DNA from: an uncultured Mycobacteriaceae bacterium
Lineage (GTDB): Bacteria; Pseudomonadota; Alphaproteobacteria; DSM-16000; Inquilinaceae
Direction of reading: 5' to 3'
DNA length: 64,000 nt
Assembly: GCA_964406375.1 (NCBI GenBank)
Contig: CAYORM010000006.1
Location: forward strand, 14,167-78,166
Shown here: positions 16,934 to 40,309 of the stretch, piece by piece
Position numbering within the stretch: position 1 is the first letter of the stretch
Layout: every line of letters starts with the position of its first letter
Notes under the pieces: generated by a model
What the model saw: the letters and a program-made list of their open reading frames with translations, nothing else
Told to the model about the DNA's origin: nothing
Database searches by the model: none
Made by a program: the position numbers and the translations under genes

Positions 16934-16954
16934 CTCGGTTCGCTCCTCCAGATT

Positions 16955-16969: not shown

Positions 16970-17027
16970 CTAGCAGCGTCGCACGGAAGTGGCAAGGCCG
17001 CGGCGGGCGCCCTAACATCGTGGAATC

Positions 17028-19411: not shown

Positions 19412-19414
19412 CGC

Positions 19415-19912: not shown

Positions 19913-19977
19913 CCCTCTCCCCTTTTATCCCCCAAGCCACGCGCGGGACGGCCAGCGGGGGCCGCCCCGTTTCGCGC

Positions 19978-21000: not shown

Positions 21001-21052
21001 CGCTTTCCTCCCACATAGGCACGCCGGCACGGCCCGACGCGTCGATCGCTGA

Positions 21053-21926: not shown

Positions 21927-24001
21927 GTCGGGTCCTTCATGTCAGATCCCTCCACCAGGGTGACGAGCGCATCGGCTACGACCGCGCCCCGGCCCTTCGG
22001 CAGCACGATCAGCGGGTTGATGTCGAGCTCGAGCAGCCGGTCGGCATGGGCGAGGGCGAAGCGGGCTAGCGCCATCACCGCATCGGCTGCGGCATCGAGA
22101 TCGGCGGGCGGTGCGCCGCGGAAACCGTCGAGAAGCGGCGCTATGCGCAGGGATCGGAGTGCCGCTGTGACCTCCGCGCGCGTCACCGGCAGCAGCAGGA
22201 TGCGGCTGTCCTGCAGCAGCTCGGTCAGCACCCCGCCGGCGCCGAGGACGAGATGCAGCCCCATGACCGGATCGCGGGCGACGCCGAGCAGCAGCTCGAC
22301 GCGCGCCATGCCGGCGCCTGCCATGCGTTCGACCAGCACCGCCTCCCCCAGCGGTGCGAGCGCCCGCCAGGCCTCGCGCAACGCCGCCTCATCGGCGAGA
22401 CCGACCCGCACGGCACCGCGTTCGGTCTTGTGAAGGAGGTCCGCGCCGGCGGCCTTCGCCACGACCGGCCAGCCGAGCCGCGCTGCCGCGGCGACGGCCT
22501 CGGCCTCCGACCGGCAGAGGGCGTGGTCGGGGATCGGGAGCCCCCAATCGGCGAGCAGAGCCTTGGCCGCGACCTCGGCCAGCACGATGCGGCGGCCGGC
22601 CGCCACCGGCGTCGGCGGCGCGATCGGCCGGGGGTCCGAGGCCCCCAGCAGCGCCGCCGCCTCCAGCGCCGCGAGGCCGTCCGCGATGCCGAAGAGCGGG
22701 ACGACCCCGCGCGCCGCCAGCGTCTCGGCCATGCCGGGCGGCATCGTCTCCGGGATGGTGGCGATCAGCGCCGTGCGGGTGCCGGTCGCTGCCGCCGCAT
22801 CGGCGAGTGCCAGGGCAGAGGCGTCCCACTCACCGACATCGCCCAACTCGGCACGTGGCCAGTCGAGCAGCAGCACCGTGGCGTCCTGGCCCGCCTCCAT
22901 CACCGCCGTGAAGGTGGCGGCGAGGCGCTGCCGGTCACCCCAGTCGAAAGTGTGGTAGTCGAAGGGGTTGGAGATGGTGACCAGCGGCTGGGTGGTGCGG
23001 GCGATCCGTGCCCTGTCCTCCTCGGTGAACGGCGGCAGCGTGAGCGACCGCCCTGCCACCGCATCCGCCATCAGCGCCGCCTCGCCGCCCGAGCATTGCA
23101 GGCTGACGATTCGCCGGCCGCGCAGCGGGCCGCCGACATGCAGCACCTTCAGCGTCTCGAGCAGCGCGGTGAGGCTGCCGACCTCGGCGACGCCGATCCG
23201 GGCGAAATAGGCACTGGCCACCGCCGCGCCGCCCGACAATGACGCCGTGTGCGACAGCGCGAGCGCGGCCCCGGCCTCCGAGCGGCCGCTCTTGAGGACG
23301 ACGGCGCGGATGCCGCGCGCGGCCGCTACCGCCACAGCCTCGGCCAGCCCGGCGGGATCGGCGATGCCCTCGACATGCAGGCCGATCGCGGTGATCCGCG
23401 GATCCTCGGCCAGGGCCGCGACCGTCTCGGCCAGGCCGATCGCCGCCTGATTGCCCAGCGCCACCACCATCGCCACGGGCAGGCCGCGCCGGCTCATCGT
23501 GAGGTTGATCGCGATGTTGCTCGACTGGGTGACGAGCGCAACGCCCCGTTCGACGGGCACCGCGCCATGCAGGTCGGGCCACAGCGCCGCCCGATCGAGA
23601 GCGTTGACGAAGCCGTAGCAGTTCGGGCCGAGGACGGGCATCGCGCCCGCCGCCGCGCACAGCGCGTCCTGCAGCGCCGCCCCTTCTGCGTCGGTTTCGC
23701 GGAAGCCGGCGGCGTAGCAGACGGCGCCGCCGGCGCCGACCGCCGCGAGCGCGCGCACGACCTCGACCGTCGCCACCCGATTGACGCCGATGAAGACCGC
23801 GTCGGGCGCCTCGGGCAGCGCGTCGATGCGCGGCACGCAGGGACGCCCCTCGACCATGCGGTGCTCGGGATGGACCGCCCAGATCGGACCGTCGAAGCCC
23901 AGCCGGTCGCATTGCCGGATGACGCGCGCTGCCGGGCGGCCGCCGACGACCGCGATGCTGCGCGGCCGGAGGAGGCGGGTGAGGCGTCCCTCGGCCGCCA
24001 T
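21923..24001 (-). CDS. ADP-forming acyl-CoA synthetase (CoA-binding plus ATP-grasp domains); candidate gamma-butyrobetainyl-CoA synthetase
   Basis: RPRSIAVVGG.., VFIGV.., ..VLGPNCYGF.. (succinyl-CoA-synthetase-like alpha part), then a C-terminal ATP-grasp part. ATG at 24001 follows GAGG. The longer track ORF overlaps the upstream gene. Confidence 0.8.
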   Translation of the reverse strand: MAAEGRLTRLLRPRSIAVVGGRPAARVIRQCDRLGFDGPIWAVHPEHRMVEGRPCVPRIDALPEAPDAVFIGVNRVATVEVVRALAAVGAGGAVCYAAGFRETDAEGAALQDALCAAAGAMPVLGPNCYGFVNALDRAALWPDLHGAVPVERGVALVTQSSNIAINLTMSRRGLPVAMVVALGNQAAIGLAETVAALAEDPRITAIGLHVEGIADPAGLAEAVAVAAARGIRAVVLKSGRSEAGAALALSHTASLSGGAAVASAYFARIGVAEVGSLTALLETLKVLHVGGPLRGRRIVSLQCSGGEAALMADAVAGRSLTLPPFTEEDRARIARTTQPLVTISNPFDYHTFDWGDRQRLAATFTAVMEAGQDATVLLLDWPRAELGDVGEWDASALALADAAAATGTRTALIATIPETMPPGMAETLAARGVVPLFGIADGLAALEAAALLGASDPRPIAPPTPVAAGRRIVLAEVAAKALLADWGLPIPDHALCRSEAEAVAAAARLGWPVVAKAAGADLLHKTERGAVRVGLADEAALREAWRALAPLGEAVLVERMAGAGMARVELLLGVARDPVMGLHLVLGAGGVLTELLQDSRILLLPVTRAEVTAALRSLRIAPLLDGFRGAPPADLDAAADAVMALARFALAHADRLLELDINPLIVLPKGRGAVVADALVTLVEGSDMKDPT

Positions 24002-24008
24002 CCTCGCC

Positions 24009-25169
24009 TCAGGCCCCCAGCGGACGCAGCAGGTCGCGGGCGATGATGTGGCGCTGGATCTCGCTGGTGCCGTCCCAGATCCGCTCGACCCGCGCATCGC
24101 GCCACAACCGTTCGAGCGGCAGATCGTCCATCAGCCCCATGCCGCCATGGATCTGGATCGCCGCATCGGTCACCCGCCCCAGCATCTCGCTGGCGTAGAG
24201 CTTGGCGCTCGCGATCTCGCGATCGGCCTTCAGGCCGCGATCCAGCCGCCAGGCGGCGGCGAGCGTCAGCCAGTCGGCGGCGTCGATCTCGGTCACCATG
24301 TCGGCGAGCTGGAAGCCTATGCCCTGGAACCGGCCGATCGGCTCGCCGAACTGCCGGCGGGTGGCGGCGTAGCGGAGGGCGAGGTCGAAGGCGCGTCGCG
24401 CCCGGCCGACGCAGGCGGCGGCGACGGTCAGCCGCGTCGCCGACAGCCAGCGATTCATCACCGCAAAGCCCTGATCGACCTCGCCGAGCACCTGCGCATC
24501 GGGCAGGCGGCAGCCATCGAAGACGAGGATGACATTGTGATAGCCGCGATGTGAGACCGAGCGGTAGCCGGGCCGGATGGTGAAGCCCTTCGTGCCCCGG
24601 TCGACGAGGAAGGCGGTGATGGTCTTCTTCGGCCCGCGCGGCGTCGTCTCCTCGCCGGTCGCCATGAACACGACGAAGAAATCGGCGATGTCGCCATGGC
24701 TGATGAAGTGCTTGGTGCCGTCGAGCACCCAGTCGCTGCCGTCGCGCCGGGCCGTCGCCTTCATGCCGCGGACGTCGGAGCCGGCCTCGGGCTCCGTCAT
24801 CGCCAGCGCGTCGATCCGCTCGCCGCGGATGGCAGGGAGGAGGTAGCGGTCGCGCTGATCCCCGGTGCAGGCGAGCAGGATGTTGGATGGCCGGCCCCAA
24901 TGCACGGTGAGTGCCATCGACGCCCGGCCCAGCTCCCGCTCGAGCAGGGTCAGCGTCACGGGGTCGAGCCCGCCGCCGCCCAGCTCGGCCGGCATGTTGG
25001 GGGCATAGAAGCCGAGATCGAGCACCTTGCGGCGGATTTCGGCGCCGATCGCGGGGTCGAGGCTGCCGCTGCGCTCCACCTCGGCCTCGAGCGGGTAGAG
25101 TTCCCGCTCGACGAAGGCGCGCACGGTCTCGACCACCATCTCCTGCTCCGGCGTCAGGCCGAATTCCAT
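24009..25169 (-). CDS. acyl-CoA dehydrogenase family protein; candidate gamma-butyrobetainyl-CoA dehydrogenase
   Basis: 386 aa. LAMTEPEAGSD, the ..QFG.PI..FQ.. region, and C-terminal IWDGTSEIQRHIIAR are typical ACAD motifs. Confidence 0.88.
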   Translation of the reverse strand: MEFGLTPEQEMVVETVRAFVERELYPLEAEVERSGSLDPAIGAEIRRKVLDLGFYAPNMPAELGGGGLDPVTLTLLERELGRASMALTVHWGRPSNILLACTGDQRDRYLLPAIRGERIDALAMTEPEAGSDVRGMKATARRDGSDWVLDGTKHFISHGDIADFFVVFMATGEETTPRGPKKTITAFLVDRGTKGFTIRPGYRSVSHRGYHNVILVFDGCRLPDAQVLGEVDQGFAVMNRWLSATRLTVAAACVGRARRAFDLALRYAATRRQFGEPIGRFQGIGFQLADMVTEIDAADWLTLAAAWRLDRGLKADREIASAKLYASEMLGRVTDAAIQIHGGMGLMDDLPLERLWRDARVERIWDGTSEIQRHIIARDLLRPLGA

Positions 25170-25182
25170 CGCGGCGCCCTCC

Positions 25183-26658
25183 TCAGCGCGTCTCCGGCAT
25201 GGCGATCCGCCGCCCCGCCCCTTCCGGCAGGCCGCCCCGGCGGTGCTGCTCCATCAGCGCGACGATGCGGGCCGCCACAGCGTCCTCCGCCGGGGCGGCG
25301 CGGCCGATGCGCCGGTCGACATGGATCAGCATCTGCTCCGCGGTCGCCAGCGTCGTGCCATCCGGTTGCCGCACCATCTCGTGGAAGATGTGCAGCCGCT
25401 TGGCGTCGGCGCCGAGGATGCGGGTCGTCACCTCGATCGCCTCGCCGGCCTTCGCCTCGGCGAGGTGCCGGAGATGCGTCTCGACGGTATAGGCGCTGCG
25501 GCCCGCCGCGATCGCGGCACTGTCGAGGCCCACCGTCTCGAGCAGCCGGTCCGTCGCCTGGCCGAAGGCGTCGAGGTAGCGGTGCTCGGTCATGTGTCCG
25601 TTGTGATCAAGCCATGCCTCGGGCACCCGGGCGGAGAAGCTCGTGATCCCCGTGCGCTCCGCCGGCGCCGCCTGCCGCAGCTGCGCGGCATGGGCCGCGA
25701 GATCCGCGCCGGCGCCATAGCGCTGCCCCTCCAGCGCCCTCAGCACCGCGACGAGGCAGTCGTCGCGCAGCCGTTCGAGGGCCCTCAGATCGGCGCCGAC
25801 CGGCTCCTTCGCCGCCTGGGCGTCCGATTGCGCCGCGAGCCGGTCGAGCAGCGCATCCGTCAGCTCCGGCACGTCGGTCAGCCGGGTCCATGGCCATTTC
25901 AGCGCCGGGCCGAACTGCGCCATGAAGTGGCGCATGCCCGCCTCGCCACCGGCGATGCGGTAGATCAGGAAGGTGCCCATGAAGGCCCAGCGCAGCCCCG
26001 GGCCGTAGCGCAGCGCGTCGTCGATCTCCTCGACCGTCGCCACCTCGTCATGGACGAGCCACAGCGCCTCGCGCCACAGCGCCTCCATCAGCCGGTCGGC
26101 GATGAAGCCGTCGACCTCGTGACGGACATGGAGCGGATGCATGCCGAGGGCACGATAGAGGTCGGCGGCCCGCTCGATCGTCGCCGGCGCGGTCGCCGCC
26201 CCGCCGCACAGCTCGACGAGCGGCATCAGATAGACGGGGTTGAAGGGATGGGCGACGGTGAAGCGTTCCGGCCCCGCCATCTCGGCCTGCAGCCGGCTGG
26301 GCAGAAGGCCCGAAGTCGAGGAGGCGATGATCGCGTCTTCCGGCGCGGCACGGGCGGCGCGGGCGAGCAGCGTCACCTTGAGATCCTCGCGCTCCGGCGC
26401 CGATTCCTGGACGAGATCGGCGCCTTCCGCCGCCTCTTCCGGGCTGCCGACGAAGCGGAGCCGGCCCTCCGCCGGCTTCGGTGCATCGATCAGCCGGGAC
26501 AGGGCGCGTCGCGCATTCGCGACCATCGCCTCGACCTTGCGCGGGGCCTCGGGATCGGGATCGTAGAGGGCGACGTCGACGCCGTTGAGAAGGAGACGCG
26601 CGGCCCAGCCGCCGCCGATCACCCCGGCCCCGACGAGGCCCGCCTTGCGCGGCCGCAT
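25183..26658 (-). CDS. lcdH: L-carnitine dehydrogenase fused to a C-terminal thioesterase domain
   Basis: Starts at [23 protein letters not shown].. (codon 170 of the track ORF; its ATG overlaps the BKACE stop by 1 nt). SSTSGLLPS, HPFNPVYLMPLVE and FIADRLMEALWREALWLV..GMRHFMAQFGPALKWPWT match Pseudomonas L-carnitine dehydrogenase as I recall it. The last 150 aa or so (..HNGHMTEHRYLDAF..) look like a hotdog-fold thioesterase. Confidence 0.85.
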   Translation of the reverse strand: MRPRKAGLVGAGVIGGGWAARLLLNGVDVALYDPDPEAPRKVEAMVANARRALSRLIDAPKPAEGRLRFVGSPEEAAEGADLVQESAPEREDLKVTLLARAARAAPEDAIIASSTSGLLPSRLQAEMAGPERFTVAHPFNPVYLMPLVELCGGAATAPATIERAADLYRALGMHPLHVRHEVDGFIADRLMEALWREALWLVHDEVATVEEIDDALRYGPGLRWAFMGTFLIYRIAGGEAGMRHFMAQFGPALKWPWTRLTDVPELTDALLDRLAAQSDAQAAKEPVGADLRALERLRDDCLVAVLRALEGQRYGAGADLAAHAAQLRQAAPAERTGITSFSARVPEAWLDHNGHMTEHRYLDAFGQATDRLLETVGLDSAAIAAGRSAYTVETHLRHLAEAKAGEAIEVTTRILGADAKRLHIFHEMVRQPDGTTLATAEQMLIHVDRRIGRAAPAEDAVAARIVALMEQHRRGGLPEGAGRRIAMPETR

Positions 26659-27554
26659 CACCCGGGGCTCCGCAGCTTGAGTTTCGTGCGGACCTCGGCG
26701 GGCGTCAGCAGCCGCACATTCATCGCCGAGAGGATGGTCACCGCACGCTCGACGAGCGCCCCGTTGGTCGCCAGACGGCCGCGGGAGAGGTAGAGATTGT
26801 CTTCCAGCCCGACTCGGACATTGCCGCCGGCGAGTACCGCCATCGCCACATAGGGAAGCTGCATCCGGCCGATCGAAAAGGCCGAGAAGACGGCGCCCGG
26901 CGGCAGGCGGTTGACCATGGCGAGCAGCGTGCCGGGGTCGTCCGGCGCGCCGTAGGGGATGCCCATGCAGAGCTGGATCAGAACCGGGTCGTCGATCAGC
27001 CCCTCGCGGATCAGATCCTTCACCATCACGAGATGGCCGGTATCGAAGACCTCGAGCTCCGGACGCACCCCCAGCGCCTGCACCCGGCGGGCCATGGCGC
27101 GCAGCATGTCGGGCGTGTTGGTCATCACATAATCGCCGCCGGCCGCGAAATTCATCGACCCGCAATCGAGGGTGCAGATCTCCGGCAGCAGCGCCTCGAC
27201 ATGGGAGAGCCGCTCGGTGGCACCCGCCATATCGGTCCCGGCGGGATCGAGCGGCAGCGGCGTCTCCGCTCCGCCCAGCACCAGATCGCCGCCCATGCCG
27301 GCGGTGAGATTGAGCACGACATCCGTTCCCGAGACGCGCACCCGGTCGACGACTTCGCGATAGAGGGCGGGATCGCGGGCCCCCTTTCCGGTCGCGGGGT
27401 CACGGACATGGATATGGGCGATGGCGGCGCCGGCCCGTGCCGCCTCCACGGCGGCCGCGGCGATCTCGGCGGGGGTGACCGGCACCTTGTCCGACTTGCC
27501 CGTCGTATCACCCGCTCCGGTCACCGCGCAGGTGATGAAGACCTCCCAGTTCAT
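26658..27554 (-). CDS. BKACE family (3-keto-5-aminohexanoate cleavage-like, DUF849) enzyme; candidate dehydrocarnitine cleavage enzyme
   Basis: ..[11 protein letters not shown]...[24 protein letters not shown].. and ..[22 protein letters not shown].. are hallmark BKACE blocks. Confidence 0.85.
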
Positions 27555-27572: not shown

Positions 27573-28769
27573 CTAGACATCCGCCGGCGGCGTCGCGGTC
27601 CGCCGGGGCAGCGTGACGAAGGGCCGCTCGACGATCCGGGCCCGCATCATCAGCTTGTGGTAGCGCAGCTCCTTCAGCGCGTAGATCTCGACCCAGAAAT
27701 CGTCGCGGATCCGCGTGCCATAGGGCGCATCGAGCGTGGCGAGCGCGATGTTGCGCTTGGCGGTCGGCGACCAGGCGGCGGAGGTGACGATGCCCGCCTC
27801 GCGTCGCCGCCGGTGATAGACGACCGCCTGCCCCGCCGGCACGTTGCCGTCGATCTCCAGCCCGACCAGCGCATGGCGCGCACCCGCCGCACCGCGCGCG
27901 AGCAATGCATGGCGGCCGTTGAAGGCGTCCTTCTGCGGATCGACCATCCAGCCCAGCCCGATCTCCCACGGCGTGCGGGCCCGGTCGGCGCGCAGCGCGC
28001 GTTCGGCGGTGACGAAATCGACATTGGCGACGATGAAGCCGGCCTCGAGCCGGGCGAGATCGAGCGCGGCATAGCCGATCGGTCGCAGCCCGCGCAGCCG
28101 CCCGGCGGCGACCAGCCGGTCCCAGAGTGCGAGGGCATTCTCGGCCGCGACGAACAGCTCATAGCCGAGATCGCCGGTGAAGCCGGTCCGCGAAACCGTC
28201 ACCGACGCGCCGTCGATGGACAGATCGCGGATGTCGAAGGGCCTCATCGTCTCGATGCCAGCGAAGCCCGCCTCGCGCAGCACCGCGCAGGCGGTCGGCC
28301 CCTGCAGGGCGAGCGCAGCGATCCGCTCCGTCTCCTCCTCGATCTCGACATCGAAGCCGCGCGCGCTGTCGAGCAGCCAGGGCAGATGCCGCTCCTGGCA
28401 GCACAGCCGGAAGGTGCCGCCCGGCAGGTGGAACAGCGTGCCGTCGTCGAGGACATGGCCCTCGCCGTCGCACCAGGCGGTGTAGTGCACCCGCCCCGGG
28501 CGCAGCTTCGCCACCGAGCGCAGCGTCAGCCGGTCGAGATAGGCGACGGCATCCGGCCCGGCGATCCGGTACTTCGTCATCGGCGACAGGTCGAACAGAC
28601 CGCAGCCATTGCGCAGGGCGAAGTATTCGAGCTCGCGATCCTCGATCACCGACGGCGCGGCGAAGCCGCTCCAGGAATACCAGGCGGTGGTGCGCATTGC
28701 CGCCGCGATCCGCGGATGGAACGGCGTCATGCGCTGCGGCGCACGGAAATGATCGCGGGCCGCGGTCAT
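27573..28769 (-). CDS. aminomethyltransferase (GcvT/DmdA-like, folate-binding) family protein
   Basis: ..EYFALRNGCGLFDLSPMTKYRIAGPDA..YLDRL.., ..SRTGFTGDLGYELF.., ..GYAALDLARLEAG.. are GcvT-family blocks. ATG at 28769 forms an ATGA overlap with the upstream stop. Confidence 0.85.
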   Translation of the reverse strand: MTAARDHFRAPQRMTPFHPRIAAAMRTTAWYSWSGFAAPSVIEDRELEYFALRNGCGLFDLSPMTKYRIAGPDAVAYLDRLTLRSVAKLRPGRVHYTAWCDGEGHVLDDGTLFHLPGGTFRLCCQERHLPWLLDSARGFDVEIEEETERIAALALQGPTACAVLREAGFAGIETMRPFDIRDLSIDGASVTVSRTGFTGDLGYELFVAAENALALWDRLVAAGRLRGLRPIGYAALDLARLEAGFIVANVDFVTAERALRADRARTPWEIGLGWMVDPQKDAFNGRHALLARGAAGARHALVGLEIDGNVPAGQAVVYHRRRREAGIVTSAAWSPTAKRNIALATLDAPYGTRIRDDFWVEIYALKELRYHKLMMRARIVERPFVTLPRRTATPPADV

Positions 28770-30331
28770 CGCCGCCCCTCCCGCTCGAGGATACGGCGGG
28801 CGGCATTCCAGCCCGGCACCCCCGAGACGCCACCGCCCGGATGCGAGCCGGCGCCGCACAGATAAAGCCCGCCGACCGGGGTGTCGTAGCGCTCGGCGCC
28901 GAAGACCGGGCGCAGCACGAACATCTGATCGACCGCGAGTTCGCCGTGGTGCCACTGGCCGCCGGGCATGCGCCAGCGCGCCTCCAGATCGTCCGGCGTG
29001 AGGAGTTCCGCCGCCCGCACCCGGGCGCCGATCCCCGGCGCATGCGCCTCGAGCACCGCCATCGCCGTCCGGAGGACGGCCGCGCGGTCGGCGCCCGGCG
29101 GGACATATTGGATGCAGGCCGACAGGACATGGCCGCCGGCCGGCGCCAGCGACGGATCGGTGACGGTGGGCAGCACGATCTCCATCGCCGGCGCGGGCGA
29201 GGCTTCGCCATACTTCACCGCATTGAAGGCGCGCTCGACATGATCGATGGAGGGGGCGACGAGCAGCCGGTCACCGAGCCGCTCCGGCGGGAGACCGATG
29301 AACGCAGGCGCCCCGTCGAGCGCCAGATGCAGCTTGGCAACGGTGCCCCTGATCCGGATCCCCTCGACCCGCCGCACGAAATCGGTGTCGAGCCGCGGTG
29401 CGCCGACGAGATCGAGGAAGGTCGTCCGCGGATTGACCGCCGAGACGATGACGGCGGCGGCGATCCGTTCGCCAGCCTCGGTCACGACCGCGACCACCCG
29501 GCCGCGCTCCACCTCGATCGCCGCGACCGGCGTGGCCGTCCGGATGGTGACGCCGGCCGCCCGCGCCGCCGCCTCGAGGGCCGCCGCGACGGACCCCATG
29601 CCGCCCACCGGCAGGGCGAGCGCCGCCTGCCGTCCGTCCACCGAGCCGGCGAGCCGGTAGAGCAGTGTCATCAGCGAGGTCGGCGAGCGCGGCCCGAGAC
29701 GCGTGCCGAGCACCGCGTCGAAGGCGACGGCCCCGGCCAGCTTCGGACAGGCGAGTTCCTCCTCGAGCGCGTCGGCGACGCTCATCAGCGCCATGCGCAG
29801 GAATTCCTGCCCCTCCGCGCGGCCGAGCCGCCGGATGGCGAGGCCCAGCCGGGCGAGCGGCAGTCGCTCGCGCCAATGACCGCCCGCCAGCGGTGGCGGG
29901 ATCTCGGTGAGGAAGGGTTGCAGCGTGCGGGCAAAGCGCAGCAGACGCGCGCGCAGAGCGGGCCAGCCCTCCGCCCCGCCCACACTGCCCTCGATGCGCT
30001 CTCCGAAGGGTCCCGCCAGACGCAGCGCCCGTCCGTCGGGGTCGAGCACCGTCGTCGCGACGTTGGATGCCGCCCAGCGCAGCCCGTGCCGGGCGAGGTC
30101 GAGCTCGCGGAGGATGGCGGGATGGAGGAGATGGGCGAAATGGGCGACCGCCGGCACCCGCCAGCCGGACAGGAACTCGATGGTGCGGGCCGCCCCGCCG
30201 GTCGCCTCGGCCGCTTCCAGGACCAGTACGCGACGGCCGGCACGGGCGAGCCGGGTGGCGGCGACCAAGCCGTTATGGCCGCCGCCCACCACCACGGCGT
30301 CCCAGGTGTCAGAGGACGGCATAGGCGTCAC
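28766..30331 (-). CDS. NAD(P)/FAD-dependent oxidoreductase, phytoene-desaturase-like (COG1233), paralogue 2
   Basis: WDAVVVGGGHNGLVAATRLARAG..VLVLE is the dinucleotide-binding fold. The C-terminus LYLCGAGSHPGGGVSG is typical of the CrtI-like family. It overlaps the upstream paralogue by 23 nt, or 14 nt if it starts at M4. Confidence 0.82.
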   Translation of the reverse strand: MTPMPSSDTWDAVVVGGGHNGLVAATRLARAGRRVLVLEAAEATGGAARTIEFLSGWRVPAVAHFAHLLHPAILRELDLARHGLRWAASNVATTVLDPDGRALRLAGPFGERIEGSVGGAEGWPALRARLLRFARTLQPFLTEIPPPLAGGHWRERLPLARLGLAIRRLGRAEGQEFLRMALMSVADALEEELACPKLAGAVAFDAVLGTRLGPRSPTSLMTLLYRLAGSVDGRQAALALPVGGMGSVAAALEAAARAAGVTIRTATPVAAIEVERGRVVAVVTEAGERIAAAVIVSAVNPRTTFLDLVGAPRLDTDFVRRVEGIRIRGTVAKLHLALDGAPAFIGLPPERLGDRLLVAPSIDHVERAFNAVKYGEASPAPAMEIVLPTVTDPSLAPAGGHVLSACIQYVPPGADRAAVLRTAMAVLEAHAPGIGARVRAAELLTPDDLEARWRMPGGQWHHGELAVDQMFVLRPVFGAERYDTPVGGLYLCGAGSHPGGGVSGVPGWNAARRILEREGRR

Positions 30332-31928
30332 TCAGATGGTCGGTGGGCCGCCGCAGATCGCGCAGGATCTCCTTCGCGGCGTTGCGTCCCGGGGCGCCCA
30401 TCACCCCGCCGCCCGGATGGGTGGACGAGCCGCACATGTAAAGGCCGCGGATCGGCGAGCGGTACTGCGCATAGCCGGGCACCGGTCGGTTGAACAGCAG
30501 CTGGTCGAAGGTCAGCTCACCTTGGAAGATGTTGCCCTCCGTCAGCCCGACCTCGGCCTCGAGCTCGCGCGGCGTGCGCACTTCCATGTGCAGGATCAAC
30601 TCACGGAAACCGGGGGCGTACTCGGCGATCTGATCGACCACGGTGCGGGCGAAGCCGTCGCGATCCGCATCCGTCCAGGGCCGACCCTCGACGAGCGGCG
30701 GGCAGTACTGGACGAAGCAGCTCATGAAATGCTTGCCCGGCGGCGTGAGCGTCGGGTCGGTCGCCGACGGGATCATCATGTCCAGGACCGGATCGGCCGA
30801 CCACCGCCCGGCCTTCCAGTCGTCATAGGCGCGCTCCATCCGCTCGATGCTGTCGGTGAAATGGAGATCGCCGCGGATGCAGGGCGAATCCTCCGGCAGT
30901 GCCGGGAAACGCGGCAGCGCGTCGAGCGCGATGTTCACCTTGCCGGAGGAGCCGCGGATCTTGAAGGTCCGCACCCGCTTCAGGAAGGATTCGGGCAGAT
31001 GGCGGGCCTCGACCATGCCGAGGAAGGTCCGCTTCACATCGGCATTGGAGACGACGAGCCGGCCGCGCAGCTCCTCGCCGCCCGCCAGCACCACGCCGGT
31101 CGCCCGCCCGCCTTCGACGAGCACATGCTCGACCGCGGCGCCGGTGCGGATCGTGCCGCCCGCCGCTTCGAAGGAGGCCGCGAGCGCCGCGGTGATCGCC
31201 CCCATGCCGCCGCGGGCATAGCCCCAGGCGCCGACCGAACCATCGACCTCGCCCATGTAATGGTGCAGCAGCACATAGGCGCTGCCCGGCGACATCGGCC
31301 CGAGCGCCGTGCCGATAATGCCGGAGATGGCGAGCGAGGCCTTGATCACCTCATTCTCGAAATAGCAGTCGAGGAATTCGGCGATCGACATCGTCCAGAA
31401 TCGGATCGTGTCGGCCATCTCGGCAGCGGTCAGGTCGTGAAAGCGGCGCCCGAGATGGAGCAGCTCGGCGACATCGCGCGGCCGGAAGCGCAGCGGGTCG
31501 GGCGCGGTGCGCAGCAGCAGCGGCTGGATGAAGCGGCATTGCCGCGTGACATCACGGGCGTAGCGCTCATAGGCCTCGGCATCACGCCGCGAGAAGCGCG
31601 CGAACTCCCGCCGATGGGCGTCGTGGTCGCGATAGGCGGCGAGATAGTCGCCACCTCGCGTCAGCACGGCGCCGCCGTCATAGGCGATGATCTGCAGCCC
31701 GTGGCGCGGCAGGTCGAGGTCGCGGATGATCTCGGGCCGCAGCAGGCTGCAGACATAGGAACAGTTGGAATAGACGAACCCCGGATGGAGCGACCGGCTG
31801 GTGGCCGCGCCGCCAACCCAGGGATTGCGCTCGACCACCAGCACATCGAGCCCGGCGCGCTGCAGGTAGCAGGCCGCCACCAGCCCATTATGCCCCGCGC
31901 CGATCACGACCGCATCGAAGGTCTTCAT
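30309..31928 (-). CDS. NAD(P)/FAD-dependent oxidoreductase, phytoene-desaturase-like (COG1233), paralogue 1
   Basis: MKTFDAVVIGAGHNGLVAACYLQRAG..VLVVE.., and C-terminal LYMCGSSTHPGGGVMG. First gene of the 8-gene operon. Confidence 0.82.
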   Translation of the reverse strand: MKTFDAVVIGAGHNGLVAACYLQRAGLDVLVVERNPWVGGAATSRSLHPGFVYSNCSYVCSLLRPEIIRDLDLPRHGLQIIAYDGGAVLTRGGDYLAAYRDHDAHRREFARFSRRDAEAYERYARDVTRQCRFIQPLLLRTAPDPLRFRPRDVAELLHLGRRFHDLTAAEMADTIRFWTMSIAEFLDCYFENEVIKASLAISGIIGTALGPMSPGSAYVLLHHYMGEVDGSVGAWGYARGGMGAITAALAASFEAAGGTIRTGAAVEHVLVEGGRATGVVLAGGEELRGRLVVSNADVKRTFLGMVEARHLPESFLKRVRTFKIRGSSGKVNIALDALPRFPALPEDSPCIRGDLHFTDSIERMERAYDDWKAGRWSADPVLDMMIPSATDPTLTPPGKHFMSCFVQYCPPLVEGRPWTDADRDGFARTVVDQIAEYAPGFRELILHMEVRTPRELEAEVGLTEGNIFQGELTFDQLLFNRPVPGYAQYRSPIRGLYMCGSSTHPGGGVMGAPGRNAAKEILRDLRRPTDHLSDAYAVL

Positions 31929-31986: not shown

Positions 31987-32002
31987 TTGAATGATCATTC
32001 AG
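31987..32002. promoter_or_regulatory. palindromic operator, copy A (TTGAATGATCATTCAG)
   Basis: Contains the perfect 14-bp palindrome TGAATGATCATTCA in an AT-rich pocket. It lies 59 nt upstream of the operon start (31928) and upstream of the divergent TetR gene. Confidence 0.6.
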
Positions 32003-32239: not shown

Positions 32240-33070
32240 ATGAGGCTGGACGGGCCACCCGCGAGCGGGGACCCGCGAGGCGCCCCGACCGAGGTTCCGT
32301 TGACCCGCGCATCATCGGCTTCCAAGACCCCGACCTCGTCCGCCAGCCCCCCGGGCGGCCCCTCAGCCGCACCGGCAACCGCCCGGACGGCGCGGGCGCA
32401 ACGGGAGGAGGGCACCAAGGGCCGCAAGGCATCCAAGGCGGTGCGCCGCCAGCAGCTCATCGAGGCGACGATCGATTCGCTCGCCACGCGCGGCTTCTCC
32501 GGCACCACGATGGCCGATGTGACCGACGGCGCCGGCCTGTCCCGCGGCATCGTCAATTTCCATTTCGACAGCAAGGAGACCCTGCTGGTCGAGACGCTGC
32601 GCTCGCTGGCCGACGAGTACAGCGCGCATTGGCGCAATGCGCTGGCGCGGGCACGGCCCGATCCGGCCTCGCGGCTGTGGGCGCTGGTCGCCGCGGATTT
32701 CGACCGCCAGATCTGCAATCGTCGCAAGCTGGCCGCCTGGTGCGCCTTCTGGGGCGAGGCCAAGTCGCGACCGACCTACAAGGCGCTGTGTTCCGCACGC
32801 GACGCCATCTATCAGGACACGATCATCGAGCTCTGTCAGGCGCTGGTGGACGAGGGGGGCTACGCGCTCGACCCGAAATCCGTCGCGGTCGGACTCGACG
32901 CGATGCTCGAAGGGTTGTGGCTGCGGCTGCTGCTCGACGGCCGCGGCATGGGGCGCGAACAGGGCCATGCCACTGTCATCCAGTATCTCGTCGCGCTGTT
33001 CCCGGCGCATTTTACCGCCGCGGGACCGGTCCCCCGGACCGCCGCGACCGCGCCGCCATCGCGGGGATGA
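32240..33070 (+). CDS. TetR family transcriptional regulator, BetI-like
   Basis: HTH region is RRQQLIEATIDSLATRGFSGTTMADVTDGAGLSRGIVNFHFDSKETLL. ..KLAAWCAFWGEA.. and ..LEGLWLRLLLDG resemble E. coli BetI blocks (KAWLAFWA.., GLWLRAAL). The start is uncertain: ATG 32240, TTG 32213 or GTG 32441. The N-terminal 65 aa or so look disordered. Confidence 0.78.
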   Translation: MRLDGPPASGDPRGAPTEVPLTRASSASKTPTSSASPPGGPSAAPATARTARAQREEGTKGRKASKAVRRQQLIEATIDSLATRGFSGTTMADVTDGAGLSRGIVNFHFDSKETLLVETLRSLADEYSAHWRNALARARPDPASRLWALVAADFDRQICNRRKLAAWCAFWGEAKSRPTYKALCSARDAIYQDTIIELCQALVDEGGYALDPKSVAVGLDAMLEGLWLRLLLDGRGMGREQGHATVIQYLVALFPAHFTAAGPVPRTAATAPPSRG

Positions 33071-33195: not shown

Positions 33196-34287
33196 ATGAC
33201 GACACATACCCGGCGGCGATACGTGACGGGCGCCGCGAGCATCACCTGCGCATTGGCCGCGGTGGCCTGGCTCGCGCCCGCCCCGGCCTCGGCGGACGAT
33301 CCCGCCCTGACCGTCTTCGACTGGGCGGGCTATGAGGACCCGTCCTTCCACCCGGCCTATGTCGAGGCGCATGGCGCCTCGCCGACCTTCGCCTTCTTCG
33401 GCGATGAGGAAGAGGCGTTCCAGAAGATCCGTGCCGGCTTCCGCGCCGATCTCGCGCATCCCTGCTCCCAGAGCGTGGTGAAATGGCGCGATGCGGGGCT
33501 TCTGCGGCCGATCGACACCGGCCGCATCGAGGCCTGGGACGACATCATCCCCGGATTGCGCGACCTGGAAGGCTTCGCGTCCGAAGGCGAGCAGTGGTTC
33601 GTGCCCTTCGAATGGGGCAATACAGGCCTCATCTACCGCACCGATGTGGTCGATGCGGCGGCCCTCTCCTCGCTGCGGGTGCTGGCCGATCCCGCCTATG
33701 CCGGCCGCGTCTCGTTGCCCGACAATGTCGACGATGCCTTTGCGCTCGGCGCCCTCGTCGTCGGGGTGCGTGACTGGACGCAGATGACGGATGCCGAATT
33801 CCAGGCCGCCGCCGCCTTCCTGCGCGAGGTGGCGCCGAATGTGCGGATGTACTGGACTGACAACACCGAGCTGGCGCAGGCGATGGCGACCGGCGAGATC
33901 GTGCTGGCCTGGGGCTGGAACGAGACCCCGACCCATCTGCAGGCGGACGGCTATCCCGTCGCGATGCACAAGAACACCGAGGAGGGCATCTTCACCTGGG
34001 TGTGCGGCTATGTCCTGCTCGCCGGCGGGGCAGGGTCCGAGGACCGGGCCTATGACTATCTCAACGCCGTGCTCGCGGTGGAGTCGGGCCACTTCCTCCT
34101 GGACGCGTGGGGCTATGGCCACGCCAATGCGGAGGCGATCGCCACCGCCGACCCGACGGTCGTCGAGGCCAGCGGCTTCGCCGATTTCGAGCAGTTCACC
34201 GACCGCACCCTGTTCGCGGCGCCGCTGCCGGAGGCGCTGCGTCAGCGGATGATCAGCGAGTTCGAACGGATCAAGGCGGGGTTCTGA
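33196..34287 (+). CDS. ABC transporter substrate-binding protein, PotD/PotF (polyamine/amine) family
   Basis: RR-containing signal peptide (MTTHTRRRYVTGAA..APASA), then ..LTVFDWAGYEDP.., ..WGNTGLIYR.. This is a PotD-like pattern. Confidence 0.78.
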   Translation: MTTHTRRRYVTGAASITCALAAVAWLAPAPASADDPALTVFDWAGYEDPSFHPAYVEAHGASPTFAFFGDEEEAFQKIRAGFRADLAHPCSQSVVKWRDAGLLRPIDTGRIEAWDDIIPGLRDLEGFASEGEQWFVPFEWGNTGLIYRTDVVDAAALSSLRVLADPAYAGRVSLPDNVDDAFALGALVVGVRDWTQMTDAEFQAAAAFLREVAPNVRMYWTDNTELAQAMATGEIVLAWGWNETPTHLQADGYPVAMHKNTEEGIFTWVCGYVLLAGGAGSEDRAYDYLNAVLAVESGHFLLDAWGYGHANAEAIATADPTVVEASGFADFEQFTDRTLFAAPLPEALRQRMISEFERIKAGF

Positions 34288-34297: not shown

Positions 34298-35386
34298 TCA
34301 GACCAGCGGGATCAGCGCATCGACGTCCCAGCCGATGCGCACGCCCGCCCCCGGGGCGAAGGCCGGCCGGCCGGTATTGGTGACCGCGACCGTCAGCCGC
34401 TCCTCCTGTCCCGGGATTCTGACCTCGTAATGGGTGACCTCGCCGAAATAGGTCGCCTCCTCGATCGCGCCCTGCATCGCCGGTTCCGGCCCCGGGCCGT
34501 CTGCCTCATCCCCGAACAGCCGCAGCCGCTCCGGCCGGACGCCGAGCACGATCTCGCGCGCGCCACCGAAACCGGCCGGCAGCGGGGTCTCGATCCGACC
34601 GATCCCGGCGGCGTCGAGCTCGAGCGTCGCAGCGGCGGTCCGAAGGACCCGGGCCCGAATGAAGTTCATGCCGCCTATGAAATGCGCGACGCGGCGGCTC
34701 GCCGGCCGCTCATAGATCTCGCGCGGCGTCGCCACCTGCTCGATCAGCCCGTCGAACATCACCGCCATGCGGTCCGACATGGCGAGCGCCTCGTACTGGT
34801 CGTGGGTGACGAGGATGAAGGTGATGCCGACCGCCCGCTGCAGGCGCCGCAGCTCGCCCTGCATCTGCTCACGCAGCTTCTTGTCGAGTGCCGAGAGCGG
34901 CTCGTCGAGCAGCAGCACCTTGGGTCGCAGCACCAGGGCGCGGGCGAGCGCCACCCGCTGCCGCTGCCCGCCCGAGAGCTCATGCGGCCGCCGTCGTCCG
35001 AGGCCCGACAGCCCGACCATCGCCAGCGCCTCCTCCACCCGTGCCCGTCGGCTGGCGGCATCGAGCTTCAGCCGGCGCAGCCCGTAGGCGACGTTCTGCG
35101 CGACGTCGAGATGCGGGAAGATCGCATAGTTCTGGAAGACCATATTGGTCGGCCGGCGGTTGGCCGGCACGCCGCGCATCGAGACGCCGTCAATGCGGAT
35201 ATCGCCCTCCGAGGGCTCGTCGAACCCGGCGATCAGCCGCAGCAGCGTGGTCTTGCCGCAGCCAGACGGGCCGAGCAGTGAGAAGAACTCTCCGGTCCTG
35301 ATCGCGAGATCGACGCCGCCGAGGGCGACGAAGCCAGCATAGCGCCTGGTGACGCCGCAGGCCTCGATGATCGGTCGGTCGGTCAC
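34298..35386 (-). CDS. ABC transporter ATP-binding protein (PotA-like)
   Basis: GPSGCGKTT (Walker A), LSGGQRQRVALARAL, LLLDEPLSALD. GTG at 35386 is preceded by GGAGG at 6 nt. The longer track ORF overlaps the upstream permease. Confidence 0.88.
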   Translation of the reverse strand: MTDRPIIEACGVTRRYAGFVALGGVDLAIRTGEFFSLLGPSGCGKTTLLRLIAGFDEPSEGDIRIDGVSMRGVPANRRPTNMVFQNYAIFPHLDVAQNVAYGLRRLKLDAASRRARVEEALAMVGLSGLGRRRPHELSGGQRQRVALARALVLRPKVLLLDEPLSALDKKLREQMQGELRRLQRAVGITFILVTHDQYEALAMSDRMAVMFDGLIEQVATPREIYERPASRRVAHFIGGMNFIRARVLRTAAATLELDAAGIGRIETPLPAGFGGAREIVLGVRPERLRLFGDEADGPGPEPAMQGAIEEATYFGEVTHYEVRIPGQEERLTVAVTNTGRPAFAPGAGVRIGWDVDALIPLV

Positions 35387-35399
35387 GACGGGCCTCCGC

Positions 35400-36245
35400 T
35401 CACAGGATGTCGTCCGAAGGTGTCCGCCGGCGGCCGAGACGCCGCAGCGCCTGCGCGGCCGCGAGCAACAGGAAGGAAGCGGCGAGCAAGATCGTGCCCA
35501 GCGCCAGCACATTGGGGAGCTGCGCCGCGAAGCGGAGCTGGCCCCAGATGTAGATCGGGATCGTCGGCTCGGTGCCGGTCAGGAAGAAGGCGACGATGAA
35601 CTCGTCGAGCGAGATCGTGAAGGTGACGAGCAGGCTGGCCGCGAGGCCGGGCGCTACGATCGGCAGCGTCACCCGGAAGAAGGTGCCGAGCGGCGATTCG
35701 CCGAGATCGGCCGATGCCTCCTCGAGGCTGCGATCGAAGCCCTCGAAGCTCGACATCATGATCGCCATGGCGAAGGGGATGCACAGCAGGACGTGCCCGA
35801 CCACCACGCTCGACAATGACAGATTGAGCCCGAGCTGGATCAGCGCGACGAGCAGCCCGACCGCGACGACGATGTCGGGCAGGACCAGCGGCACCATCAC
35901 GAAGCCGGTGGCGAGACGGCGGCCGGGGAAGCGGTAGCGGGTGACCGCGCGCGCGCCGAGTGTCCCGAGGATCGTGCTGATCACGGCGGTGGCGAGGCCG
36001 ACCTCGAGGCTGTTCCACACCGCCTGATGCAGCGCATCCACCCCGGCCAGCCGCTCGTACCAGCGGGTTGTGAAGCCCTGCAGCGGGAAGGCGACGACCG
36101 AGCTGTCGTTGAAGGAGAACAGCGGCAGCAGGAACACCGGCAGGTAGAGGAAGCCGATGTAAAGGAGCGTGTAAAGGGTGAGGCCGAGCGGCAGGCCGCG
36201 GCGACGGCCGCTCCCCTTTCGCGCCGGCTGCGGCGCGACCGTCAC
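35400..36245 (-). CDS. ABC transporter permease (PotC-like)
   Basis: 281 aa, six hydrophobic segments, EAA-type loop (..SLEEASADLGESP..). Confidence 0.85.
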   Translation of the reverse strand: MTVAPQPARKGSGRRRGLPLGLTLYTLLYIGFLYLPVFLLPLFSFNDSSVVAFPLQGFTTRWYERLAGVDALHQAVWNSLEVGLATAVISTILGTLGARAVTRYRFPGRRLATGFVMVPLVLPDIVVAVGLLVALIQLGLNLSLSSVVVGHVLLCIPFAMAIMMSSFEGFDRSLEEASADLGESPLGTFFRVTLPIVAPGLAASLLVTFTISLDEFIVAFFLTGTEPTIPIYIWGQLRFAAQLPNVLALGTILLAASFLLLAAAQALRRLGRRRTPSDDIL

Positions 36246-37380: not shown

Positions 37381-37396
37381 TTGAACGTGCATTCAG
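37381..37396. promoter_or_regulatory. palindromic operator, copy B (TTGAACGTGCATTCAG)
   Basis: Same TTGAAYG-NN-CATTCAR architecture. It sits in the AT-rich divergent region between the permease operon and the aminotransferase (start 37450). Confidence 0.5.
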
Positions 37397-40140: not shown

Positions 40141-40159
40141 CGGTGTCTCCAATCCCTTG

Positions 40160-40175
40160 TTGAATGTTCATTCAA
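40160..40175. promoter_or_regulatory. palindromic operator, copy C (TTGAATGTTCATTCAA)
   Basis: Perfect 7-2-7 inverted repeat, TTGAATG/CATTCAA, 20 nt upstream of the Rieske oxygenase start. Confidence 0.6.
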
Positions 40176-40309
40176 TATACTGCCGCCGGGTCATCGCGCG
40201 CAAGGCGGCCGGCGGTCGGGGAGCTGGTGGCTTCGCGGCGCGGCCGGCCGGGAACGACGCAGGCGCCCGCCGGTTGACCGGTCCGGGCACTGCCGGACGG
40301 GAGCCAGCC

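Follow-up and report, generated by a model that had tools for sequence, protein, structure and literature searches.

A conserved trio of two CrtI-like flavoproteins and a GcvT-like protein within a putative BetI-type regulon, a candidate folate-linked N-demethylase

The DNA considered here is a stretch of 64,000 nucleotides from an uncultured bacterium (GenBank assembly GCA_964406375.1, contig CAYORM010000006.1, positions 14,167 to 78,166; hereafter the window), and our subject is a trio of genes within it, a candidate N-demethylase. The window has a base composition of about 71% G+C. Eight tightly packed genes lie on its minus strand, with the trio in lead position and the genes leading from gamma-butyrobetaine and carnitine to glycine betaine behind it. 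The first gene of the trio (30309-31928) encodes FlavA, a CrtI-like (COG1233) flavin adenine dinucleotide (FAD) flavoprotein of 539 residues, which we propose as the catalytic amine-oxidising subunit. The second (28766-30331) encodes FlavB, a paralogue of FlavA (521 residues, about 35% identity) that would be a second flavoprotein or an accessory subunit. The third (27573-28769) encodes a stand-alone folate-binding protein of the GcvT family (398 residues, “GcvT-like” below), proposed to capture one-carbon (C1) units as 5,10-methylene-tetrahydrofolate (5,10-methylene-THF). The overlap of FlavA and FlavB measures 23 nt with the GTG at 30331 as FlavB start, and 14 nt with the in-frame ATG at 30322. 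FlavB and GcvT-like share an ATGA (4-nt overlap). An 18-nt gap carrying a G-rich, ribosome-binding-like run, GGGGGAAGGGGG, follows GcvT-like, and the next two genes have a TGATG in common (1-nt overlap). The sequence confirms these gene coordinates, the four junctions and the lead position in an eight-gene operon, all of which had been claimed in a first-pass annotation of the window. No terminator-like site above chance was found within the operon, and a scan for promoters and terminators likewise returned nothing above chance.

The five genes that follow, all on the minus strand, encode a beta-keto acid cleavage enzyme (BKACE) of the dehydrocarnitine-cleavage type (26658-27554; PF05853, 331.7 bits); an L-carnitine 3-dehydrogenase (LcdH) fused to a thioesterase domain (25183-26658; domains 3HCDH_N, 3HCDH and 4HBT_2), scoring 671.8 bits with NF005716 for a cut-off of 592; an acyl-CoA dehydrogenase of the gamma-butyrobetainyl-CoA dehydrogenase type (24009-25169; Acyl-CoA_dh N, M and C domains); an ADP-forming acyl-CoA ligase of the butyrobetaine/crotonobetaine activation type (21923-24001; CoA_binding_2, Succ_CoA_lig and ATP-grasp_5), whose start at 24001 was set from the place of MAAEGRL... 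within the open reading frame (ORF); and an enoyl-CoA hydratase (ECH) resembling crotonobetainyl-CoA hydratase (21144-21926; ECH_1 208 bits; NF002936 319 bits, under the cut-off of 500). They make up a complete gene set from gamma-butyrobetaine and L-carnitine to glycine betaine, as the first-pass annotation had it, recognised by NF005716 for LcdH and by Pfam family for the other four. Work on S. meliloti reportedly provides the basis for assigning each step of this pathway to its gene. The same annotation held that the trio was left without a step, and this still stands: the names given in databases to the homologues of FlavA, of GcvT-like and of the related FlavC (see below) are generic throughout, e.g. 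“phytoene desaturase family protein”, and we found neither a paper on the trio nor a characterised orthologue in a searchable literature that is incomplete, so that an earlier description may exist.

FlavA was used to scan one genome per species, which gave at least 594 confirmed matches. The 80 best loci were analysed; 57 of them have full 10-kb flanks and 71 have enough downstream sequence for the order of the trio to be read. Among the Alphaproteobacteria they belong to Hyphomicrobiales (Mesorhizobium, Rhizobium, Shinella, Phyllobacterium and others), Rhodobacterales, Puniceispirillales and Kiloniellaceae; the other classes are represented by Steroidobacteraceae and Woeseiaceae (Gammaproteobacteria) and by Burkholderiaceae. 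The order FlavA-FlavB-GcvT on one strand is found in 70 of the 71 loci, the sole exception being a long-read metagenome-assembled genome (MAG) with an apparent frameshift, and FlavB comes directly after FlavA in every locus with enough sequence. Because the ordered trio recurs in this way, it is a real, evolutionarily fixed functional unit and no chance juxtaposition. FlavA is 65-80% identical across the alpha-, gamma- and betaproteobacterial loci, with 206 of its 539 positions invariant in 43 sequences. In FlavB 53 of 521 positions are invariant and the FAD motifs are retained; in GcvT-like the figure is 77 of 398. An apparent FlavA-FlavB fusion, P0002 (890 residues, in a MAG of Paracoccaceae), joins FlavA to the C-terminal two-thirds of FlavB, without the FAD-binding N-terminus of the latter (its first 175 residues or so). 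We rejected it as evidence of a complex, as it is probably an artefact of assembly or a deletion.

Both flavoproteins carry the FAD-binding and C-terminal motifs ascribed to them in the first pass (DAVVIGAGHNGLVAA and LYMCGSSTHPGGGVMG in FlavA, DAVVVGGGHNGLVAA and LYLCGAGSHPGGGVSG in FlavB), and its statement that they are not of the DAO type is also borne out. The amine-oxidase family PF01593 (gathering threshold 19.8 bits) spans the two proteins, at 62.6 bits over residues 15-522 of FlavA and 74.7 bits over residues 21-515 of FlavB. Matches to DAO (PF01266) are confined to the N-terminal FAD fold, the best stretch being residues 5-170 of FlavA, and in FlavB PF01593 outscores DAO (74.7 vs 47.6 bits). 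The soxA model gives 148 bits with the trio for a cut-off of 1164, which places it outside the dimethylglycine dehydrogenase (DMGDH) and sarcosine oxidase type. The solved structures that are related in sequence are solely CrtI (73 bits) and a gamma-carotene desaturase. The AlphaFold2 model of FlavA (pLDDT 86, pTM 0.89) is nearest in fold to the carotenoid desaturase 4REP (TM 0.75/0.82), followed by 3KA7 and CrtI (4DGK, TM 0.55/0.71), then by many flavin amine oxidases and dehydrogenases, including NicA2, putrescine oxidase, 6-hydroxynicotine oxidase, cyclohexylamine oxidase and MAO. The fold search with this model does not discriminate between amine oxidation and C-C desaturation. On these criteria, FlavA and FlavB are CrtI-like members of the amine-oxidase superfamily lying outside every characterised family.

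Could the database names simply be right, FlavA and FlavB being desaturases of carotenoids, or of other isoprenoids or lipids, that lie near amine-catabolism genes by chance? Besides the names, the CrtO ketolase model NF045689 is the best NCBIfam match of FlavA and 4REP its nearest fold. All carotenoid models nevertheless fall far below their cut-offs, with 301.2 bits for FlavA and 180.6 for FlavB against the 1000 required by CrtO, and 135.4 and 115.4 against the 238.1 of the CrtI family TIGR02734. Among the neighbour families conserved over the 80 loci there is no carotenoid or isoprenoid (crt, hpn) family; the neighbours are instead fixed and amine-related, and share an operator with the trio (see below). 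We rejected a carotenoid role on these model scores and on this genomic context, and regard it as extremely improbable.

GcvT-like passes both Pfam domains of its family (GCV_T, PF01571, 197.7 bits; GCV_T_C, PF08669, 44.4 bits) and remains below the cut-off of both T-protein models (TIGR00528, 173.3 for 235.85; PRK00389, 217.2 for 300) as well as of the SoxA, DmdA and Tdm equivalog models. The DmdA model gives 114 bits. The model NF053776 of Tdm, a trimethylamine N-oxide (TMAO) demethylase, gives 252 bits for a cut-off of 1100 and is matched at positions 384-754 only, the N-terminal domain being absent. The closest relative of GcvT-like is the C-terminal, formaldehyde-capturing folate domain of Tdm (PDB 9Q5A residues 408-750, 181 bits), bacterial T-proteins coming next. 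None of 48 orthologues departs from its DDGT (D108-D109) or its SRTGFTGDLGYE. Both motifs align with T-proteins, in the region of the catalytic Asp, and with Tdm, the DDGT being matched to the IIDD of T. maritima GcvT and the MVDD of Tdm. GcvT-like is far nearer to the T-proteins and Tdm than to DmdA, and retains the T-protein Asp. Neither gcvH nor gcvP is present in the conserved neighbourhood of the trio in the 80 loci. A folate-dependent role in C1 capture is well supported by these comparisons.

For the neighbourhood census all ORFs of the 80 loci were clustered, and the clusters labelled by NCBIfam and Pfam. Among the 57 full-flank loci, a BetI-type TetR repressor is present in 55, a class-III omega-aminotransferase in 53, a PotABC-type ABC transporter with a PotD- or PotF-like binding protein also in 53, and a group-V-type Rieske oxygenase, often as two paralogues, in 41. 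The last count is an underestimate because the Rieske gene of Mesorhizobium lies at the edge of the flank. Aminotransferase, transporter and Rieske genes are jointly present in 37 of these loci, and an aldehyde dehydrogenase (ALDH) resembling PuuC and betaine aldehyde dehydrogenase (BADH) in 18; this ALDH is nearest to PuuC, BADH and aminobutyraldehyde dehydrogenases rather than to succinate-semialdehyde dehydrogenase. Genes of the carnitine type (LcdH, BKACE, CoA ligase, ECH) lie within 10 kb of the trio in only 18 of the 57, so the lead position in a carnitine operon is not the defining context of the trio. The first-pass view of a carnitine-operon setting therefore holds for the window and is lineage-specific elsewhere. 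Its broader suggestion of a quaternary or N-methyl amine setting agrees with the frequency of the BetI-type repressor and of the Rieske oxygenase near the trio, and with the carotenoid genes not being seen there.

All the core partners are also present in the window, immediately upstream of the trio. The BetI-type TetR repressor (32240-33070, plus strand, start at 32240 or 32300) is divergent from the trio and has a TetR_N domain and a BetI-type C-terminal domain, TetR_C_6. With the BetI models it scores 119.3 bits for PRK00767, a marginal pass (cut-off 118), and 123 bits for TIGR03384, which it fails (cut-off 201). It is followed by a periplasmic binding protein of the PotD/PotF family (33196-34287, plus strand; SBP_bac_8), whose best PDB matches are PotD and PotF at about 72 bits, a distant relationship, and which is 58% identical to its orthologue in Pararhizobium sp. 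PWRC1-1 (L021). The PotA/PotC/PotB-type ABC genes (34298-37192, minus strand) were recognised by tblastn against the locus clusters; they comprise an ATPase ORF at 34298-35512, with an uncertain start codon since homology stops at 35380, and permeases at 35400-36245 and 36242-37192. The class-III omega-aminotransferase (37450-38901, plus strand) scores 270.7 bits with Aminotran_3, 499 bits with PDB 3I5T and about 320-350 bits with putrescine and polyamine:pyruvate transaminases, and the representative of its cluster passes NF005447 (706 bits, cut-off 618). The alpha subunit of a group-V-type Rieske non-haem-iron oxygenase (38911-40140, minus strand; Rieske and Ring_hydroxyl_A domains) has as best PDB matches the carnitine monooxygenase CntA (113 bits) and the stachydrine demethylase Stc2 (99 bits).

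These partners are arranged differently among lineages. In 18 loci the gene directly preceding FlavA on the same strand is that of the aminotransferase, and six of these loci show a 4-nt overlap between the two. In several Alphaproteobacteria a single operon reads aminotransferase-FlavA-FlavB-GcvT-Rieske-Rieske-PotFGHI; an annotated example, with overlapping stop and start codons, is found on a plasmid of Fuscovulum ytuae (NZ_CP124537, L081; QF092_RS19760-19805), where the aminotransferase and FlavA overlap by 8 nt. The Steroidobacteraceae have aminotransferase-trio-PotA-(phosphodiesterase-like)-LcdH-TetR-acyl-CoA dehydrogenase, and Kiloniella and some Gammaproteobacteria aminotransferase-trio-CoA ligase-ALDH(-ECH).

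An AT-rich, operator-like palindrome, TGAATGATCATTCA, lies at 31988-32001 between FlavA and the repressor gene, 60 nt upstream of the FlavA start, and an equivalent palindrome occupies the same place upstream of FlavA in other genera. A second site, TGAACGTGCATTCA (37382-37395), lies in the divergent promoter region of potB and the aminotransferase, with equivalents between the aminotransferase (AT3) and PotB genes in L003, L005, L024, L025, L029 and L049. A third, TGAATGTTCATTCA (40161-40174), is 21 nt upstream of the Rieske start codon, and its equivalents precede Rieske genes in L006, L019, L021, L025, L028, L031 and L055. With up to two mismatches, TGAATGWWCRTTCA has seven strand matches in the window, for 0.47 expected, and none of 100 shuffles reached seven. 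Across the 80 loci this motif gives 40 sites vs 1-3 in shuffles; nearly all of them are upstream of FlavA, aminotransferase/potB, Rieske or repressor/methyltransferase genes, in eight genera or more and in a few MAGs of Gammaproteobacteria. The 14-mer TGATTGGACGTTCA of the betI-betT intergenic region of E. coli is two mismatches away from this consensus. Since the same palindrome precedes the trio operon, potB/aminotransferase and Rieske, in the window and in other genera, they would form one regulon. There is thus strong computational evidence that a BetI-like repressor, acting at this putative operator, jointly controls the trio operon (in the window with its carnitine genes), the aminotransferase, the importer and the Rieske oxygenase. 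In 19 loci a gene for a 270-residue S-adenosylmethionine-dependent methyltransferase stands by the operator, between the BetI-type repressor and FlavA (L002, L005, L009 and other Mesorhizobium-type loci at about 8950-9760, L042, L043); it weakly matches sarcosine/dimethylglycine N-methyltransferase (74 bits).

What could such a regulon do? A quaternary ammonium has no nitrogen lone pair and therefore cannot be oxidised by a flavin amine oxidase. The non-haem-iron enzymes GbcA, CntA and Stc2 do attack quaternary amines; flavoproteins act next, on the tertiary and secondary amines, the C1 unit being trapped by a GcvT-fold domain as is the case in DMGDH, sarcosine oxidase and Tdm. In Pseudomonas the order is GbcAB, then DgcAB, then Sox. 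We propose that FlavA, FlavB and GcvT-like form a folate-linked oxidative N-demethylase of new composition acting downstream of the Rieske oxygenase, a proposal to which we give about even chances. This estimate covers the general mechanism with any substrate; it builds on gene order, conservation, shared operator and protein families as observed, from which the chemistry, subunit roles and substrate are deduced. The importer, a system of the polyamine/opine/phosphonate type (POPT), would bring in the substrate, and the Rieske oxygenase would take the first methyl or alkyl group off the quaternary ammonium, a step beyond the reach of a flavin; given the limitation of flavin amine oxidases, Rieske before flavoprotein is the logical order. 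FlavA (and FlavB) would then oxidise the N-methyl C-N bond of the tertiary and/or secondary amine, GcvT-like would trap the resulting iminium or formaldehyde on tetrahydrofolate to give 5,10-methylene-THF, and the omega-aminotransferase would deal with the primary amine left at the end. The catalytic subunit is probably FlavA, with FlavB as a second-step enzyme or a partner subunit. A split, THF-linked N-demethylase had already been suggested in the first pass. It is still the best reading, with the DDGT and SRTGFTGDLGYE of GcvT-like kept and with FlavC again paired with a GcvT gene (see below), but the functional unit appears larger, a BetI-box regulon whose repressor, POPT-type importer, omega-aminotransferase, group-V Rieske oxygenase and operator common with the trio were absent from that annotation.

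The quaternary-amine context is given by the BetI-type repressor and the CntA/Stc2-like Rieske oxygenase and, in some lineages, by the BADH/PuuC-like ALDH, the carnitine genes and a TmpA-like gene. In the window the most economical flux would run from glycine betaine through dimethylglycine (Rieske) to sarcosine and glycine (trio). Of equal standing would be a stepwise demethylation of gamma-butyrobetaine, carnitine, choline or a methylated diamine to an omega-amine, which the aminotransferase would turn into an aldehyde. The co-transcribed genes that end at glycine betaine, together with lineage modules converging there (carnitine genes, BADH-like ALDH, TmpA-like/PhnZ-TmpB-like), favour the glycine-betaine series.

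Several points weigh against an N-demethylase of this kind, or against the glycine-betaine series. The closest relatives of FlavA in fold and sequence (4REP, CrtI, CrtO) are carotenoid C-C desaturases and ketolases, and we know of no COG1233 member that oxidises a C-N bond. The Rieske protein is no GbcA orthologue (136 bits for the cluster representative, cut-off 670). If glycine is the product, it is hard to see what the near-universal omega-aminotransferase would do, and the importer is of the POPT and not of the betaine type. No electron-transfer flavoprotein or cytochrome that could accept electrons from the flavoproteins is encoded nearby or conserved in the 80 loci, and most clusters of the related FlavC have a Rieske partner and no GcvT gene. 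Finally, the activity is a deduction for every orthologue.

Since the aminotransferase is near-universal, the pathway may end in a primary omega-amine, instead of glycine or in addition to it. In its full form, this alternative keeps the same demethylase chemistry and takes a methylated or quaternary omega-amine as substrate, e.g. gamma-butyrobetaine, carnitine, choline, beta-alanine betaine or a methylated di- or polyamine, yielding gamma-aminobutyrate, 4-amino-3-hydroxybutyrate, ethanolamine, beta-alanine or a diamine, which the aminotransferase and an aminoaldehyde-type ALDH would oxidise. The aminotransferase, which may be called the most constant neighbour, is translationally coupled to FlavA in the loci with 4- and 8-nt overlaps and belongs to the group of amine and polyamine:pyruvate transaminases (PDB 3I5T, 6GWI, 9J4Z). 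The PotD/PotF family of the importer, the aminoaldehyde character of the ALDH, the distance of the Rieske protein from GbcA and the fact that a search near the trio found no DMGDH- or SoxA-like gene all point the same way. However, the trio of the window is co-transcribed with enzymes producing glycine betaine, and a second, competing betaine route in one regulon would be less economical; the lineage modules all seem to converge on glycine betaine; and to our knowledge no natural methylated diamine substrate is established. We consider this alternative rather unlikely, though it has to be taken seriously.

The supply of electrons raises another question. Rieske oxygenases normally require a reductase, and the Rieske step needs two electrons to remove the first methyl from a quaternary ammonium. 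The 80 loci were searched with a Fer2/FNR motif scan and by tblastn with FNR-type, GR-type and Rieske-ferredoxin queries. Reductase or ferredoxin genes were found within 10 kb of the trio in only three loci, vs a Rieske oxygenase in 49-51. FlavA and FlavB might thus be redox partners of the Rieske oxygenase, or oxidise a downstream intermediate and donate the electrons to the Rieske centre, GcvT-like scavenging the formaldehyde released by the oxygenase. The missing acceptor of the flavoproteins would fit, as would the adjacency of FlavC and Rieske genes in Acidiphilium and Inquilinus, usually with no other reductase. But the CrtI/amine-oxidase fold has one FAD site, lacks an NAD(P)H-binding domain and contains no Fe-S motif that could mediate between two- and one-electron transfer; the FlavC cluster of Methyloraptor has a normal GR-type reductase beside the flavoprotein; and flavoprotein-GcvT pairs exist without any Rieske gene. 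A redox-partner role is therefore improbable in our estimate. A related and decidedly speculative idea, to which we give little credence, combines both functions: FlavA/FlavB would be an amine dehydrogenase that oxidises the dimethyl and monomethyl intermediates and hands the electrons directly to the group-V-type Rieske oxygenase, which has no reductase, and GcvT-like would load every C1 unit on folate. It would account for both gaps, the oxygenase without reductase and the flavoproteins without acceptor, and, if true, would amount to a self-powered, NAD(P)H-independent cascade of quaternary-amine demethylation on a CrtI-like flavoprotein.

Related to the trio flavoproteins is FlavC, a widespread and strongly conserved clade, 40% identical to FlavA and 32% to FlavB, in which a single flavoprotein occurs without FlavB. 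On a Shinella sumterensis plasmid the order is ECH-CoA ligase-LcdH-like dehydrogenase-FlavC-GcvT, with BKACE near and no acyl-CoA dehydrogenase, and in a Mesorhizobium MAG the FlavC and GcvT genes overlap. In Ancylobacter, Inquilinus, Acidiphilium and Methyloraptor, FlavC adjoins a Rieske oxygenase, a PuuR-like regulator with helix-turn-helix and cupin domains, and a polyamine-type ABC importer; FlavC and Rieske genes overlap by 4 nt in Acidiphilium and are separated by 8 nt in Inquilinus. The C1-handling genes Fae, GFA or MTHFR lie near FlavC in two cases. Because most FlavC clusters lack GcvT, C1 release is not universal in the wider family. A COG1233 flavoprotein with a Rieske and/or a GcvT protein and a POPT importer is nonetheless a recurrent and uncharacterised theme, and FlavA is by sequence the trio flavoprotein most like the self-sufficient FlavC. 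Clusters of FlavC, Rieske, PuuR-like regulator and importer (L085, L087, L089, L090), often also with a class II aldolase, represent a second type of amine-catabolic cluster.

FlavC bears on a further alternative, in which FlavA and FlavB oxidise the carbon skeleton, either by a C-N cleavage like that of polyamine oxidases or by a CrtI-like C-C desaturation of a betaine or CoA ester. GcvT-like would then serve another step, taking up the formaldehyde from the Rieske reaction or transferring a methyl directly from the quaternary ammonium to THF as DmdA does, a GcvT fold capable of methyl transfer. The nearest relatives of FlavA in sequence and fold are C-C desaturases; the S. sumterensis operon, of carnitine type, has a FlavA-like gene where an acyl-CoA dehydrogenase is lacking; and the FlavC clusters without GcvT have the PuuR-like regulator and the polyamine-type importer. 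Against this, the operon of the window already holds an acyl-CoA dehydrogenase, the trio is inseparable and translationally coupled, which points to one reaction system, and GcvT-like, far from DmdA, keeps the Asp of T-proteins. We judge skeleton oxidation to have a low probability.

If the trio is an N-demethylase as proposed, it is alike in logic to several known systems and outside their families. Dimethylglycine oxidase (DMGO, 1PJ5), DMGDH (4PAA) and SoxABDG (2GAG) also combine flavin N-methyl oxidation with a GcvT-fold folate site yielding methylene-THF, and GcvT-like aligns with their folate domains at 83-98 bits. Their flavoprotein nevertheless belongs to the DAO family and forms a fusion or a tight complex with the folate domain, whereas the trio has two CrtI-like COG1233 paralogues and a separate folate gene. 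In the haem-dependent dimethylamine monooxygenase DmmDABC, as in the trio, the GcvT-domain protein has a gene of its own, co-transcribed with those of an N-demethylating oxidoreductase (PMC5520151). Ruegeria pomeroyi requires this protein, DmmD, to grow on methylamines, and the authors of the study propose a role for it in conjugating formaldehyde to H4F (PMC5520151). The oxidising components DmmABC are unrelated to the CrtI-like flavoproteins. Tdm, whose C-terminal folate domain is the closest known relative of GcvT-like, has an N-terminal metal-dependent catalytic domain with no counterpart in the window protein. CrtI (4DGK), 4REP and CrtO match FlavA in fold and FAD-binding motifs, but identity is 17-19%, and the context of FlavA is that of small polar amines, without carotenoid genes and with a substrate presumably water-soluble.

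With the Pseudomonas pathway from GbcAB through DgcAB to SoxBDAG the window system shares the logic of a Rieske enzyme removing the first methyl or alkyl group and flavoproteins the rest. It differs from this pathway, and from CntA and Stc2, in having no reductase gene of the GbcB or CntB type, no DgcAB-type proteins, an integral aminotransferase and a polyamine-type importer. LSD1 and NicA2 illustrate that a PF01593 fold can oxidise N-methyl or tertiary amines, with release of formaldehyde or an iminium, and that its acceptor need not be O2. Enzymes of this type are 12-15% identical to FlavA in structural alignments, and we know of none that works with a separate GcvT protein. The trio system thus lies outside the DMGDH, sarcosine oxidase, DmmDABC and GbcAB-DgcAB-Sox families. 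What sets it apart from them is the CrtI-like scaffold (not of the DAO or OYE type), the free-standing folate protein, the two flavoprotein paralogues, the oxygenase without reductase and the integral aminotransferase.

These results matter first for annotation. In thousands of genomes CrtI-like proteins of the “phytoene desaturase family” are labelled carotenoid enzymes, while the clade of FlavA, FlavB and FlavC sits in amine-catabolic regulons of soil and marine Proteobacteria in hundreds of species, its carriers including Mesorhizobium, Rhizobium, Shinella, Rhodobacterales, SAR116-like Puniceispirillales, Steroidobacteraceae and Woeseiaceae. A folate-linked N-demethylase on this scaffold would, if confirmed, be the third flavoprotein scaffold for N-methyl oxidation, and would define a widespread route by which the methyls of carnitine, butyrobetaine, betaine and related osmolytes enter the folate C1 pool and are not released as trimethylamine or free formaldehyde. 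It would bear on the cycling of methylated amines in sea and soil and on quaternary-amine degradation free of trimethylamine. The operator, the orphan Rieske oxygenase and the obligatory aminotransferase mark out a compact regulon of about 12 genes, which is experimentally tractable.

Other genes of the window lie on either side of this regulon. On the 3' side of the operon is a TRAP transporter (18098-21030, minus strand) with DctP at 19978-21030 (PF03480, 123.6 bits), DctQ at 19415-19912 and DctM at 18098-19411, taken from the ORF list with a filter on G+C at third codon positions (GC3); a TRAP transporter neighbours the trio in none of the 80 loci. Further on, 13164-18170 holds genes for a DUF4432 protein, a transketolase split into separate N- and C-terminal halves, an SDR protein and a LacI regulator, and looks like a sugar/polyol cluster without relation to the trio. 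Past the Rieske gene, 40091-44291 encodes a Cys-rich DUF326 protein, a bicupin of 378 residues, an IclR regulator and a family-5 (peptide/nickel-type) binding protein, none of which is conserved alongside the trio.

Some additional neighbours were noted at individual loci. In L081 the 10-gene operon runs on (22647-25608) into a cupin of the DMSP-lyase family (PF16867, 65.8 bits), an amidohydrolase and a methyltransferase. In several Steroidobacteraceae (L047, L051, L061 and others, at about 1300-3200; clusters c39 and c18) a BBOX-family Fe/2-oxoglutarate dioxygenase adjoins the PotF-like gene; it is nearest to TmpA (PDB 6NPB, 203 bits, vs 142 for human BBOX), and beside it a 196-residue HD-domain protein is weakly similar to PhnZ/TmpB. 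From their sequences, this pair could convert trimethyl-aminoethylphosphonate to glycine betaine, or the dioxygenase could be a butyrobetaine hydroxylase. In L021 a dmmDABC-like cluster (15307-20637) lies directly 3' of the trio, linking it to genes of trimethylamine and dimethylamine oxidation; a second GcvT-domain protein is encoded there together with a small Cys-rich protein, an FNR/2Fe-2S reductase and a DUF3445-like subunit, and a gene for a Tmm-like flavin monooxygenase comes next. On the plasmid pW43C of Parasedimentitalea marina (L082) the trio is found amid two extra Rieske oxygenases, an OYE-type FMN/FAD protein of 679 residues resembling amine dehydrogenases, a GNAT acetyltransferase, a protein of the histone-deacetylase family resembling acetylpolyamine amidohydrolases, a BKACE and an additional aminotransferase, a context with a polyamine flavour.

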